Shown here one piece after another: positions 9,722 through 16,800 of a stretch of 64,000 nt of DNA. Source of the stretch: Candidatus Poribacteria bacterium (GTDB lineage: Bacteria > Poribacteria > WGA-4E > GCA-2687025); contig OY762492.1 in NCBI GenBank assembly GCA_963665845.2, positions 3,467,895 to 3,531,894 of the forward strand, read 5' to 3'. Position 1 is the stretch's first letter, and every line of letters starts with the position of its first letter. The notes beneath the pieces are model-generated. The model had not been told where the DNA came from, made no database searches, and saw only the letters and a list, made by a program, of their open reading frames with translations. The translations under genes and the position numbers were made by a program.

Positions 9722-9740
9722 CATCGTCAAGCCTCGCGTT

Positions 9741-9982
9741 CTGACCTCTGAATGATCGCTCTATTCATGGGAAAAAGACCCCGCTAACCAAACCGTCCCC
9801 CGCTTCCGCGAGGACATGCATTCCCGCGCAAGCGGGAATCCAGAGTGCCGACAGAAACCGTCCGCGTTTACCCCAAGCGTCCATCTTACACGCCGTCATT
9901 CCCGCGCAAGCGGGAATCTTAGGCGTCGCAGACGCCGTCCATATCGCGTCTCCGATCAACATCATCGTATGAGCGTACTGCC
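9741..9982. repeat. Mosaic repeat block: truncated type II TIR, two ATTCCC-N8-GGGAAT hairpins and a solo IS1-type inverted repeat
   Basis: CTGACCTC fused to TGAATGATCGCTCTATTCATGGGAAAAAG (9741-). Hairpins ATTCCCGCGCAAGCGGGAAT at 9820-9839 and 9898-9917. CATCATCGTATGAGCGTACTGCC at 9957-9982. Confidence 0.7.
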
Positions 9983-10154
9983 GCCCAGCCGTTTTGGATG
10001 CATACCCTCCCCCGCATGTGTTATACTCTAATGCAATCGTTCCGGCTGATGCCGGCGTTACACAGGTTTGCGCACAGGCAACTCGAAAGGAGCGCCGCAT
10101 AGATGAGGTTCCACAGATTCAACATCAGGAGTGTCGCGCACATGAAACTCACAC

Positions 10155-13100
10155 GTGACGTACCCCCCCCCCCCCCCCCCCCCCCCCCGCGCTTGGTCCG
10201 CTGCTCTAGCGGCGGCGCTTCTCTGCGCATGGCTCGTTGCTGAAAACAGCAGCGCGCAACAGGTCCTGACAGGGCATACGGATGATGTCAGGTCCGTGGC
10301 GTATTCGCCGGACGGTCAGACGATCGCCAGCGGCAGCGCCGACGGCACAATCCGCATCTGGAATCCAGCGACGGGCGCGCATGTCCGAACGCTGGAAGAA
10401 AACGAAACCAGAGTTTTCGCTGTGGGCTATTCGCCGGACGGTCAGACGATCGCCAGCGGAAACTTCTACAACACGATAAGCGTCTGGAACGCTCAAACAG
10501 GCGCGCATCTCAAAACCCTGGAAGAGCGCGTGAACGGCGCGAGCGTCTGTAGAGTAGGCGACGTCCTACAGCCCGGAGACAGCTGCTATTATCCGGGAAC
10601 TGACATTGTGATTCGCGCTGAGGGCGGAAGCCTTATCATTGGAGGCGCATCCTTCTCTGGGGCAACCATAAATCTCCAGGGCGTTACCATCGGCGGCGTA
10701 CGCATCTCCATTACTGCCGTACGCGACGGAAATTCTTATAGAATTTCCGGAATTGCGAGCGCGTCCGCTGTCTACTCGGTGTCGTATTCGCCAGACGGAA
10801 CGCGAATTGTCAGCGGCGGCGGCGGCGGCAGCGGCGACGACACGATTCGGATCTGGAACGCCGAGACGGGCGAACTCATACGAACGCTTGAAGGGCATAC
10901 GGGTATTGTCTGGTCTGTGGCGTATTCACCGGACGGTCAGATGATCGCCAGCGGCAGCTGGGACGACATGATTCGGATCTGGAACGCCAACACGGGCGAA
11001 CTCATACGAACGCTTGAAGGGCATACAGATAATGTCTATTCTGTGATGTATTCACCGGACGGTCAGACGATCGCCAGCGGCAGCGCCGACGACACGATTC
11101 GGATCTGGAACGCCAACACGGGAGCGCACATACGAACCCTCCAAGGACATACGAATACAGTCCTTTCTGTCCTTTCTGTGGCATATTCGCCGGATGGTCA
11201 AACGATCGCCAGCGGCAGCGCCGACGACACGATTCGGATCTGGAACGCCAACACGGGAGCGCATCTACGAACCCTCCAGGGACATACGGATGTAGTCCTG
11301 TCCGTGGCCTATTCACCGGACGGTCAGACGATCGCCAGCGGCAGCTGGGACGACACGATCCGCCTCTGGGACATCAGCGACCTCGCCGCTCCTGTAGACC
11401 GCCCAACGGCGACCGTCTCCGGCCCGAGTGAGACGCAAACAGGCGCGTTCGATGTGACCATCGAGTTCAGCTCCGCCGTCACAGGTTTCGAGTCGTCCGA
11501 CATTGTTGTGACGAACGGCTCTGTGACCAATCTTGCCGGCAGCGGCGCATCCTACACGGCAACGATTCAACCGTCCAGCACAGGAGCCGTTACGGTGAGC
11601 GTCCCCGCCAACGCCGCGGGGAACAACACCGCTTCCAACACCTACTCTGTCAACGCTGAAACCGGAGGGCCGCAGGTCCTGACAGGGCATACGGATGATG
11701 TCTTTTCTGTGGCGTATTCTCCGGACGGTCAAACGATCGCCAGCGGCAGCAGGGACGACACGATCCGCATCTGGAACGCCAACACGGGAGCGCACATACG
11801 AACCCTCCAAGGACATACGAATATAGTCCTTTCTGTGGCATATTCGCCGGATGGTCAAACGATCGCCAGCGGCAGCGTCGACGCCACGATTCGGATCTGG
11901 AACGCCAACACGGGAGCGCATCTACGAACCCTCCAGGGACATACGCGTGTAGTCACATCCGTGGCCTATTCACCGAACGGTCAGACGCTTGCCAGCGGCG
12001 GCTTCGACAACACGGTTCGGATTTGGAACGCCAACACGGGAGCGCATCTACGAACCCTCCAGGGACATACGGATCAGGTATGGTCCGTGGCATATTCACC
12101 GGACAGTCAGATGATCGCCAGCGGCAGCGCCGACGCCACGATTCGGATCTGGAACGCCAACACGGGCGAACTCATACGAACGCTTGAAGGGCATACAGAT
12201 TATGTCTATTCTGTGATGTATTCACCGGACGGTCAGACGATCGCCAGCGGCAGCGTCGACGCCACGATTCGGATCTGGAACGCCAACACGGGAGCGCACA
12301 TACGAACCCTCCAAGGACATACGAATACAGTCCTTTCTGTGGCATATTCGCCGGATGGTCAAACGATCGCCAGCGGCAGCTGGGACGACATGATTCGGAT
12401 CTGGAACGCCAACACGGGAGCGCATCTACGAACCCTCCAGGGACATACGGATGGAGTCCTTTCTGTGGCGTATTCGCCGGATGGTCAGACGATCGCCAGC
12501 GGCAGTTACGACGATACGATACGCATCTGGGACATCAGCGACCTCGCCGCTCCTGTAGACGGCCCAACGGCGACCGTCTCCGGCCCGAGCGAGACGCAGA
12601 CAGGCGCGTTCGATGTGACCATCGAGTTCAGCTCCGCCGTCACAGGTTTCGAGTCGTCCGACATCGCTGTGACGAACGGCTCTGTGACCAATCTTGCCGG
12701 CAGCGGCGCAAGCTACACGGCGACGATTCAGCCGTCCAGCTTCGGAGCCTTTACCGTTACGGTGAGCGTTCCCGCCAACGCCGCGGGCAACAGAGCCTCC
12801 AACACCTACACGGTCAACGTTGAAATCGGAGCGCTGCGGGTCCTGACAGGACATACGGACCCGGTCTGGTCTGTGGCGTATTCGCCGGACGGTCAGACGA
12901 TCGCCAGCGGAAGCTCGGACGACACGATACGCATCTGGAACGCCAACACAGGGGAGCCTCTCAGAACCCTCCAGGGACATACGAGTACTGTCAGGTCTGT
13001 GGCGTATTCACCGGACGGTCAGTCGCTCGCCAGCGGCAGCTACGACAACACGATACGCATCTGGAACGCCAACACTGGCGCGCATCTACGAACCCTCCAG

Positions 13101-15491
13101 GGACATACGAATTGGGTCAGGTCTGTGGCATATTCTCCGGACGGTCTGACGATCGCCAGCGGCAGCAACGACAACACGGTTCGGATCTGGAACGCCAACA
13201 CTGGCGCGCATCTACGAACCCTCCAGGGACATACGGGTCAGGTCTGGTCCGTGGCGTATTCACCGGATGGTCAGACGATCGCCAGCGGCAGCGGCAGCGT
13301 CGACAACACGATACGCATCTGGGACGCGAACACGGGAGAGCATCTCCGAACCCTCCGAGGGCAGTCTTGGGTCACCTCTGTGGCATATTCGCCGGACGGT
13401 CAGACGCTCGCCAGCGGCAGCAGAGACCAAGCAAATCCAATTCGGGTCTGGGACGCGAACACGGGAGCGCATCTACGAACCCTCCATGGACATACGAATC
13501 CAATCCTTTCTGTAGCGTATTCACCTGACGGTCAGACGATCGCCAGCGGCAGCGGCGACGACACAATCCGCATCTGGAACGCCAACACAGGGGCGCATCT
13601 ACGAACCCTCCAGGGACATACGGGTACGGTATGGTCCGTGGCGTATTCGCCGGATGGTCAGACGATCGCCAGCGGCAGCTGGGATGAGACGATTCGGATC
13701 TGGGACATCAGCGACCTCGCCGCTCCTGTAGACCGCCCAACGGCGACCGTCTCCGGCCCGAGTGAGACGCAGACAGGCGCGTTCGATGTGACCATCGAGT
13801 TCAGCTCCGCCGTCACAGGTTTCGAGTCGTCCGACATTATTGTGACGAACGGCTCTGTGACCAATCTTGCCGGCAGCGGCGCAAGCTACACGGCAACGAT
13901 TCAACCGACAGGCGATGGCGCTGTTACGGTGAGCGTCCCCGCCAACGCCGCGGGCAACAACACCGCCTCTGACGCCTACTCTGTCAACTACGAACCGCCT
14001 TTGTTTGCGCATACGGGCGGCATTTTAGCGGCGGCGTATTCATCTGACGGAACCCGCATCGCCACCGCCTCCGCGGACGATACGGCGCTCATCTGGGATG
14101 CCGACGCGGAAACGCCGCTCCTTGAACTGACGGAGCATACGGTTGATGTCCGCTCCGCCGCCTTTTCGCCGGACGGAACCATGCTCGCCACCGGCAGCGC
14201 CGACGACACGATACGCCTCTGGAACGCTGAAACGGGCGCGCATATTCGAACGCTGGCGGGACACACGGGCGACGTCTATGCGCTAGACTATTCGCCGGAC
14301 GGCGCGACCATCGTCAGCGCAAGCGGCGACCGTACAGTTCGGCTCTGGAACGCCGAAACCGGGGAGCTTGTCAAGACGATGACGCAGCATGCGGGGGTTG
14401 TTCGGACAGCCGTCTTCTCTCCTGACGGAACGCTCATCGCCAGCGGCGGCGCCGACCGTACCGTGCGCCTCTGGAACGCGCAAACCGGCAAGCTTCTCTC
14501 CACGCTGAAAGAGCATGGGCGGACGATCTACTCGGTCGCCTTTTCACCCGACGGAACGGTTTTGGCAAGCGGCAGCGCCGACAAAACGATTCGTTTTTGG
14601 GATGTTTCGTCGCAGTCGCTTCTCCATACCCGTACGGTGGGCGGGTCTGCGGGTCTCGTGTTTTCGGTCGCCTTTTCGCCGGACGGTTCCACGCTCGCTT
14701 CCGGGAACGAGGATGGGACCGTCCATCTCTGGGCGTCCGGAAACGGCCGGCATAAAGAGACGCTAGAGGGACATACGGGAACCGTTTACGCGGTCGCCTA
14801 TTCGCCCGACGGTCAAACGCTCATCAGCGGAAGCCGCGACAAGACGCTGCGCTTCTGGTCAATGCCGAAGCCCAATCTCGATCTGAACGGCGACGGCGTC
14901 GTGGACGCGGCGGATCTGCAGATGGTCGCCAACAGCTACGGCGGCTCCGATCCGAACGCGGATGTGAACGGGGACGGCGTCGTGGATGTGAACGACGTTC
15001 TGCTGATCGCGGACGCCCTGGCGAACGCGCAGGCGGTCGCGGCGGCTCCGGCGTTGGCGTCGTTGCGGGAGGCGCCGTCCTTTCCGCAGGTGTCCAGCTG
15101 GCTGAACGACGCGAATGGGCTGATTGTCCGCAGCGATTCGGCAAAGCGGGGCATCGCCGTTTTGGAGGAGATGCTTCGGTCATCGCTGCCGGTTGTGTCC
15201 ACCAGCGCGCTTCTGCCGAACTACCCGAACCCGTTCAACCCAGAGACCTGGATCCCGTTTGAGTTGGCGGAAACGTCCCGCGTAAAGTTGACGATCTACA
15301 ACTCATCGGGTCAAACCGTGCGCGTGTTGGAGCTTGGGCAGTTGCCGGCGGGCGCCTACCGCAGCCGCGCCAAAGCCGCCCATTGGGACGGACGGAACAA
15401 TCTGGGCGAACCTGTCGCCAGCGGCATGTATTATGTCCGCATTGAGGCGGGGTCGTTCACGGCGCTGCGGCGCATGGTTGTGCTGAAGTAA
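10155..15491 (+). CDS. Giant secreted WD40-repeat protein with three Ig-like cassettes, dockerin-like repeats and a T9SS-type C-terminal sorting domain
   Basis: Dozens of WD40 blades ([35 protein letters not shown]). Three near-identical cassettes of about 95 aa starting [10 protein letters not shown] at nt 11370, 12531 and 13704. Dockerin/EF-hand-like [13 protein letters not shown]...[14 protein letters not shown]-terminal [19 protein letters not shown]...[10 protein letters not shown]...RMVVLK. The in-frame start as printed is GTG 10155; see the poly-C finding for the start problem. Confidence 0.85.
10163..10188 (+). repeat. Homopolymeric poly-C tract (26 nt) in the 5' end of the giant WD40 gene
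   Basis: Counted directly: an uninterrupted C run from 10163 to 10188. It encodes the Pro8 stretch of the track ORF. Confidence 0.95.
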
Positions 15492-15503
15492 GGCATTTCT
15501 GTT

Positions 15504-15540
15504 TGCGCGGGAGCGCGTTGCCGTTCCCGCGCAAATTTTC
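15504..15540. terminator. Rho-independent-type hairpin between convergent genes
   Basis: TGCGCGGGA (15504-15512) pairs with TCCCGCGCA (15525-15533) and is followed by AATTTT. It lies 13 nt after the WD40 stop and before the convergent MBL gene's end. Confidence 0.55.
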
Positions 15541-15569
15541 CGCGTTCTCATGCCGACATGTCAAGCGCG

Positions 15570-16705: not shown

Positions 16706-16800
16706 TGTCATTCCCGCGTAAGCGGGAATCTTAGGCGCCGCAAACGCTGTCCGCAGCGCTTTAAACCCCCCTAACCCCCCTTTTCAAGGGGGGAATCAGA
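16706..16800. repeat. ATTCCC-N8-GGGAAT hairpin plus C/G-rich hairpin in a divergent promoter region
   Basis: GTCATTCCCGCGTAAGCGGGAATCTTAGG (core 16710-16729) and AAACCCCCCTAACCCCCCTTTTCAAGGGGGGAATCAGAGG (about 16762-16800). Confidence 0.8.

Follow-up and report, generated by a model that had tools for sequence, protein, structure and literature searches.

The window analysed here is a stretch of 64,000 nucleotides from Candidatus Poribacteria bacterium (NCBI GenBank assembly GCA_963665845.2, contig OY762492.1, positions 3,467,895 to 3,531,894 of the forward strand), and the gene under study is a long open reading frame (ORF) at window positions 10155-15491, which encodes a repetitive WD40 protein ending in a C-terminal domain (CTD) of the type IX secretion system (T9SS) type. 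The genome comprises 3.98 Mb in three contigs (main chromosome contig, 3.95 Mb) and is 90% complete. The ORF runs for 1778 codons without an internal stop. Anchoring on the motif [YF]S[PS][DN][GS] placed 28 WD40 blades in it at a spacing of 42 amino acids (aa), arranged as 7+7+7+7, and Pfam PF00400 likewise matched 28 stretches. The domain order is leader, propeller 1 with an insert, Big_12, propeller 2, Big_12, propeller 3, Big_12, propeller 4, dockerin, linker and CTD, with the following features in window coordinates.

10086-10144, plus strand: ribosome-binding site (RBS) AAAGGAG at 10086-10092, with ATG codons in frame with each other at 10103 and 10142 (sequence, paralogue comparison)
10155-15491, plus strand: long ORF as assembled; GTG start, 1778 aa, stop at 15489-15491
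10163-10188, plus strand: homopolymer of 26 C, read as Pro8 in either frame (sequence)
10188-10259, plus strand: signal-peptide-like hydrophobic region ending ...ENSSA/QQ, putative cleavage site (translation, paralogues)
10260-11369, plus strand: propeller 1, seven WD40 blades, interrupted by the insert (blade anchoring)
10497-10769, plus strand: two-cysteine beta-rich insert of ~90 aa (aa 115-205), between blades 2 and 3, in the D-A loop
11160-11177, plus strand: 9-nt tandem duplication, GTCCTTTCT twice, in propeller 1
11370-11675, plus strand: Big_12 Ig-like cassette 1 (PF19078, alignment)
11676-12530, plus strand: propeller 2, seven highly repetitive blades (blade anchoring, AlphaFold2, Foldseek)
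12531-12839, plus strand: Big_12 Ig-like cassette 2 (start motif, alignment; modelled as a beta-sandwich after the propeller)
12840-13703, plus strand: propeller 3, seven blades (blade anchoring)
13704-13997, plus strand: Big_12 Ig-like cassette 3 (start motif, alignment)
13998-14870, plus strand: propeller 4, divergent, seven blades (mean blade identity 0.42)
14871-15029, plus strand: type I dockerin with two Ca-binding loops (PF00404, two stretches; direct repeat)
15030-15218, plus strand: linker between dockerin and CTD, kept in 6 paralogues at 44-67% identity
15219-15488, plus strand: T9SS type-A C-terminal sorting domain, ending RRMVVLK (TIGR04183, PF18962, FlgD_ig)

A preliminary description of this DNA, made from its letters alone, had read the ORF as WD40 propellers with an Ig-like cassette, a dockerin and a T9SS-type CTD and had proposed profile searches for the CTD, dockerin and Big domains; every one of these domain calls was correct by curated cut-offs. 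The cassette was matched by Big_12 (PF19078; E 6.6e-12, 46 bits vs a cut-off of 27), the calcium-binding repeats by Dockerin_1 (PF00404; 30.1 bits vs 22.9) and the tail by TIGR04183 (33.8 bits vs 23; residues 1690-1776 of 1778), with further matches in the CTD region to PF18962 (27.6 bits vs 27) and FlgD_ig (45.8 bits vs 27); judged by profile, the tail is a bona fide type-A CTD. The cassettes start exactly at the positions claimed (nt 11370, 12531 and 13704; spacing 1161 and 1173 nt), and both the in-frame 9-nt duplication and the non-WD insertion in the first propeller were found at the places described. Propeller 4 shares 81-90% aa identity with four paralogues and is common to those paralogues that carry the order propeller-dockerin-CTD.

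Unit 2 (propeller 2 plus cassette 2) was modelled with AlphaFold2 (AF2) from an alignment with 19 paralogous units. The model, at a mean predicted local distance difference test score (pLDDT) of 94.1, contained 28 strands (7x4) followed by a beta-sandwich, and its top PDB matches in Foldseek were 7-bladed WD40 domains at a root-mean-square deviation (rmsd) of 0.8-0.9 A. The best of these was a designer protein (7BIG, 7big_A; 55% identity, rmsd 0.8 A), and further matches comprised the WD40 domain of Thermomonospora PkwA (5YZV), the 'highly repetitive propeller' 2YMU and WDR5. Four closed WD40 propellers of seven blades each follow one another in the protein, separated by Ig-like Big_12 domains.

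Blade variation was quantified in the 13 indel-free blades of propellers 1-3. Most columns were invariant, and entropy peaked at column 8 (3.1 bits), column 10 (2.5 bits) and column 26 (3.0 bits); that is, the blade scaffold is near-constant and three positions are almost free to vary. Across 465 full-length blades taken from the genome's other genes, variability was again highest at these three columns (3.8-4.0 bits). They fall in the 'xVxSV' that follows GH and on the residue preceding the conserved Asp of 'SGSxD', and we take them to be the top-face hotspots R1-2, R1 and D-1 of Wu et al. 2012. DH[S/T]W tetrads were present in 21 of the 28 blades. Nei-Gojobori estimates among blades gave an omega of 0.19 at scaffold codons and of 2.7 at columns 8, 10 and 26, the latter serving as support only, since it is near saturation and, because the columns were chosen by their variability, partly circular. 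Mean pairwise blade identity, by our own pairwise measure and not by WDSP, was 0.73 for propellers 2 and 3 together, 0.69 for propellers 1-3 and 0.42 for propeller 4. WD40 proteins count as highly repetitive when a run of repeats reaches an internal identity of 0.7 or more and the hotspot sites are diverse; with an identity of 0.73 in propellers 2 and 3 and entropy peaks at columns 8, 10 and 26, the protein belongs to this known prokaryotic category, whose hotspot diversity has been noted before (Hu et al. 2017, Sci Rep, PMC5587647, citing Wu et al. 2012).

The super-repeat units are related unevenly. Nucleotide identity was 85.8% between units 1 and 2, 81.8% between units 1 and 3 and 85.0% between units 2 and 3, and units 1 and 2 were 93-100% identical in their 3' halves and 55-89% identical in their 5' halves, with patches of the units reaching 98-100%. 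Exact repeats of at most 78 nt join the units at offsets of 1161-1173 nt. At the level of single blades, P1.5 and P2.5 were 98% identical and P1.6 and P2.6 96%, and identity between P1.6 and the non-homologous blade P2.2 likewise reached 97%. Shared variable sites formed runs of 17 sites for units 1 and 2 and of 12 sites for units 2 and 3, longer than in all 10,000 permutations (p<=1e-4). A tree of all 48 cassettes in the genome's WD40 genes placed the three from this gene in one clade, whose sister comprised four of the five that the closest paralogue (C1:1195208-1202314) contains; in several other paralogue groups, cassettes clustered by position across genes. On the evidence of the cassette clade and the mosaic runs, the propeller and Big_12 unit was multiplied or homogenised inside the gene after the split from its paralogues, with patchy exchange since.

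The preliminary description had gone further, proposing very recent intragenic duplication or ongoing gene conversion. The 93-100% stretches, the significant mosaic runs and the cassette clade bear out part of that proposal, and units that are merely 82-86% identical do not bear out the rest: on these alignments, mosaic intragenic recombination fits and 'very recent duplication' is overstated. Its remark that the blades between the cassettes share long identical stretches holds in that the 50-mer it quoted occurs twice (11079 and 11214), although in adjacent blades of propeller 1. The three cassettes were likewise said to differ by a handful of residues. Their first ~200 nt are 95-99% identical in all pairs and their last ~100 nt are divergent, with indels (cassette aa identity 90-93%), so the statement is true of the first ~70 residues only.

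Relatives of the gene were counted in the genome with hidden Markov models (HMMs) built on ORF 10155-15491. This gave 111 ORFs with at least five WD40 blades (1385 blades in total, 6.5% of the genome), 34 WD40 ORFs with a matching CTD and 19 with Big_12 cassettes; 51 ORFs of the genome exceeded the TIGR04183 cut-off. About 15 genes alternate strictly between seven blades and one cassette (w7-I-w7), C1:1195208-1202314 having the most cassettes, five. The C-termini of paralogues follow one of two arrangements, either a divergent propeller, dockerin and CTD, as here, or a ~310-aa module and CTD. That module takes the place of propeller 4 and the dockerin in at least 10 CTD paralogues (e.g., C1:1195208-1202314, minus strand); it matched no Pfam family, and its sequence matches in the PDB were weak lectin hits only. 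The alternation of propellers and Big_12 cassettes also occurs in G008, a genome of the same genus, and in G134, which belongs to another family of the phylum, and related loci in the species collection were mostly from Candidatus Poribacteria metagenome-assembled genomes. A search of genome contigs for the propeller-cassette-propeller junction listed 80 loci; other than the gene's own locus, a narrow HMM detected a Big_12-like cassette among them only in three non-poribacterial, non-WD40 proteins. The homologous-protein search, dominated by generic WD40 matches, gave a best non-self match of 55% identity, and a metagenome scan using the unique insert yielded no orthologue from other samples. 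The preliminary description had called an exported array of propellers unusual. This view does not survive the counts above, and the class itself was published in 2014: TIGR04183 is frequent in WD40 genes of Poribacteria (Kamke et al. 2014, PLoS One, PMC3909097). With this protein, a very large and already known poribacterial WD40 family gains one further member, which, since genes combining WD40 and TIGR04183 had already been published, is no oddity.

This particular copy is confined to a segment that the same-genus genome lacks.

9725-15564, no strand assigned: segment absent at the syntenic site of same-genus genome G008 (flanking gene comparison)

G008 lacks the whole 5.8-kb segment and has only ~48 bp between the flanking genes. 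These flanks, a resistance-nodulation-division (RND) pump gene ending at 9724 and a metallo-beta-lactamase (MBL)-cupin gene starting at 15565, are 92% identical to their G008 counterparts, and comparison with G008 showed no target duplication. The part of the gene downstream of ~11.6 kb aligns co-linearly with paralogue C1:3854551-3858492 at 82%, and the 5' leader and first blades match paralogue C1:1195208-1202314 at 80% nucleotide identity, so that the make-up of the gene is chimeric, the body resembling one paralogue and the leader another. Absence of the segment from G008 therefore implies that the gene was either gained in this lineage or lost in G008, and the chimeric make-up of the gene leads us to favour gain. 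In the same region, an 18-nt palindrome (TTCCCGC-GCAA/GTAA-GCGGGAA) was found, which has 810 copies in the 3.98-Mb genome and lies in the window at 9821-9838, 9899-9916, 16711-16728 and 11 other places; two copies stand just upstream of the WD40 gene, within the segment missing in G008. The palindrome looks like a REP-like (repetitive extragenic palindromic) intergenic element.

At the 5' end, the frame of ATG 10103 and that of the long ORF differ by one base with 26 C in the tract and would be continuous with 25 or 28 C. No homopolymer of the genome is longer than this tract, and the second longest measures 12. The closest paralogue, C1:1195208-1202314, begins MRFHRFNIKSVAHMKFTRDVTPAWSAVLAAALL in a single frame and has VTPAW at the position of the tract, with no C tract, so that the 26-C run replaces its 'TP'. 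Because this paralogous leader is uninterrupted in one frame, the RBS-linked ATG at 10103 is, by comparison with it, the ancestral start. An equivalent ...NSQAQ/NSSAQQ junction stands immediately before the first blade in paralogues. Scans for promoters and terminators found sites no more often than in shuffled sequence, and no sigma-70-like promoter was found upstream on the plus strand. Since the tract puts a one-base shift between the ATG and the ORF, either its length switches expression or the assembly misreads it; more finely, the tract may be an assembly error, a fixed frameshift or a site of phase variation.

The insert in propeller 1 is a single-copy domain in this genome and matched no Pfam or NCBIfam family. 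Assignment to PAAR or SH3_5 was considered and rejected, the similarities being weak and sub-threshold. In other genomes of the phylum, giant ORFs of up to 6671 aa contain homologues with 32-42% identity, often several times per ORF (loci L002-L010), and these share the motif VCxVGDxLxPGxSCxYPGT. In an AF2 model of unit 1 (mean pLDDT 85.8 overall), the insert was all-beta at a pLDDT of 70-87. It replaces the 'GHTxx' D-A loop of blade 3, and, following standard WD40 topology, we take the D-A loop to belong to the top face.

Components of a T9SS and a cohesin partner were also sought in the genome, a check that the preliminary description had suggested. The T9SS half of the search returned SprA_N, PorV and two C25 peptidases with CTD above Pfam cut-offs; the cohesin half, with PF00963, returned nothing. 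The homologues, placed by their Pfam gathering scores, are as follows.

C1:935094-941711, minus strand: SprA_N homologue
C1:1293086-1299277, minus strand: Peptidase_C25 homologue with CTD
C1:1858843-1864773, plus strand: Peptidase_C25 homologue with CTD
C1:3740858-3741820, plus strand: PorV homologue
C1:1875289-1876557, plus strand: PorV homologue

The SprA candidate is an ORF of 2205 aa that scored 36.6 bits against a cut-off of 27 for SprA_N and contains three TIGR04189 stretches, all below cut-off. Two proteins exceeded the PorV cut-off (32.1 and 30.9 bits vs 27), and the PorU-like proteins are two Peptidase_C25 proteins of ~2000 aa that passed the Pfam cut-off and carry a CTD of their own. 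Neighbours of the SprA-, PorV- and PorU-like genes included a FadL-like barrel and DUF5683, and no further T9SS families were found among them. Candidate outer-membrane parts of a T9SS are thus encoded in the genome, as far as profile matches can identify them.

Several other WD40 loci of the genome were recorded alongside these genes. Two tandem arrays consist of nine and six WD40+CTD genes of ~770-900 aa (C1:1881487-1902669 and C1:949701-963938); the nine-gene array has a PorV-like gene at a distance of ~5 kb and a PorU-like C25 gene at 17 kb, and the six-gene array lies 8 kb from the SprA-like gene. At C1:1075663-1092339 (minus strand), three adjacent paralogues have an N-terminal domain of ~240 aa with a trypsin-like GTGFLVAPNKIxSNRHV, followed by propeller/Big_12 units and a CTD, and these are possible proteases with WD40 binding arms. 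Four WD40/Big_12 genes with the w7-I-w7 order have membrane-anchor-like N-termini and lack a CTD (C1:3019117-3025403, minus strand; C1:3058773-3063124, plus strand), so the super-repeat is not tied to the sorting tail.

The gene is probably best explained as encoding an exported poribacterial WD40-family protein with a T9SS-type tail, a recombined, lineage-specific copy predicted to act as a multivalent surface binder. By paralogue and synteny comparison, it is one young lineage-specific copy in a family of more than 100 genes. Its propeller and Big_12 unit was multiplied and then partly homogenised by intragenic recombination, and the gene probably entered between its two conserved neighbours once the lineage had separated from the same-genus relative. 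The product would leave the cytoplasm by Sec, through the signal peptide, would then cross the outer membrane in a CTD-dependent manner through an SprA-like translocon with a PorV-like shuttle, and would be processed by a PorU-like C25 peptidase, to be displayed on the cell surface or released from it. The top face of each propeller may form a distinct binding site on a semi-rigid string, making the protein a multivalent binder of host, matrix or particle ligands. A variable interaction or adhesion protein, as suggested by the preliminary description, is a putative role of this kind.

Several observations weigh against this explanation. The omega of 2.7 carries the circularity described above. 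The homologues of SprA, PorU and PorV all scored below NCBIfam equivalog cut-offs, and GldK had only generic sulfatase-family matches (85 bits vs a cut-off of 350). GldL and GldM had no match in the 90%-complete genome, an absence that is not proven, because no control genome was matched either (GldN was not searched); a six-frame search of the same 90%-complete genome found no cohesin (PF00963) at E<=0.01. As assembled, moreover, the RBS-linked ATG is out of frame, on account of which the copy may be silent or decaying. A recent paralogue insertion whose start was knocked out of frame by runaway expansion of the C tract, and which is headed for loss, would account for the one-base displacement of ATG 10103 and ATG 10142 relative to an uninterrupted paralogue leader, for the absence of the gene from G008 and for the lack of a detected sigma-70-like promoter upstream on the plus strand. 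We nevertheless consider such a fate unlikely: all 1778 codons remain open with no internal stop, omega is 0.19 at scaffold codons among blades, the in-frame GTG at 10155 still gives a hydrophobic leader, and to be one base out in a 26-mer homopolymer is nothing unusual for an assembly.

The same tract could instead make this a phase-variable contingency gene, in which slipped-strand changes switch translation on and off within the population. A tract at the 5' end of the coding region, between the RBS-linked ATG and the signal peptide, sets the frame and differs from the ON length by a single base; it has no equal in the genome, where the next homopolymer is 12, and the product is a predicted surface protein of a variable family. 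Because no other gene of the genome has a comparable tract, there is no sign of a phase-variation habit, and no orthologue was found in other samples for comparison, so that we hold phase variation as a tentative possibility only. The internal repetitiveness of the gene raises the question of whether the number of propeller and Big_12 units was collapsed or expanded in assembly, which seems highly improbable given units that differ at 14-18% of bases, a longest exact repeat of 78 nt, a chromosome in one 3.95-Mb contig, an intact reading frame and paralogues with equal unit length. A cellulosome-like assembly, in which the dockerin would plug the protein into a cohesin-bearing surface scaffold, draws on the above-cut-off Dockerin_1 match; with PF00963 unmatched in the genome at E<=0.01, and with a ~310-aa pre-CTD module that has no Pfam match and weak lectin PDB matches only, we regard it as very doubtful. 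The exported, lineage-specific WD40 binder is retained as the preferred explanation.

The protein itself is not new in kind. With the poribacterial WD40 proteins of Kamke et al. 2014 (PMC3909097) it shares the phylum, the combination of WD40 with a Por-secretion CTD and the export question. That study was a domain census of incomplete single-cell genomes, in which the propeller/Big_12 super-repeat, intragenic recombination and presence/absence polymorphism were not described and no Por structural genes were found, whereas in the present genome SprA_N, PorV and C25 homologues pass Pfam cut-offs. It resembles the highly repetitive WD40 proteins of Hu et al. 2017 (PMC5587647) in its conserved scaffold, varying predicted hotspots, tetrads in 21/28 blades and structural match at an rmsd of 0.9 A. 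PkwA (5YZV) and 2YMU are WD40 domains alone, whereas the protein here adds a signal-peptide-like leader, Ig spacers, a dockerin and a sorting tail, and the text of Hu et al. 2017 (PMC5587647) makes no mention of 'signal peptide' or 'secret'. The likeness to Bacteroidota T9SS type-A cargo (gingipains, SprB-type adhesins) lies in an N-terminal signal peptide (signal-peptide-like here), a C-terminal beta-sandwich of ~80 aa matching TIGR04183 and SprA-, PorV- and PorU-like genes in the genome; the differences are that the organism falls outside Bacteroidota, that GldL/GldM were undetected and GldK generic only, that the machinery homologues are below equivalog cut-offs and that secretion is predicted only. 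Fungal HET-E/HET-D (HNWD) NOD-like receptors (NLRs) also have highly conserved WD40 repeats. In those receptors, repeats are shuffled and a few top-face positions are hypervariable. They are intracellular receptors with NACHT, whereas the protein here has no NTPase domain, is predicted to be exported and may serve in recognition.

It is conceivable, though rather speculative, that poribacterial WD40 genes as a whole constitute a fast-evolving repertoire of surface binders, with blade shuffling, diversification at three top-face positions, export by a motor-less SprA/PorV/PorU route and members that are gained, lost or poly-C-switched between close relatives. If so, the repertoire would resemble the WD40 repeats of fungal NLRs or lamprey variable lymphocyte receptors (VLRs), but exported. 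The interest of the present gene is modest and lies in the evidence of unit shuffling, in gain or loss within one genus and in a T9SS inventory that is partial. Among genomic signatures of sponge symbionts, eukaryote-like repeat proteins are cited most often, and this copy is a clean example of how they build up and turn over, through unit multiplication, recombination between units, variation at three positions and presence or absence between congeners. With a near-complete genome that contains SprA-, PorV- and PorU-like genes without detected GldL/GldM, the question of how such proteins are exported is narrowed to a testable one.

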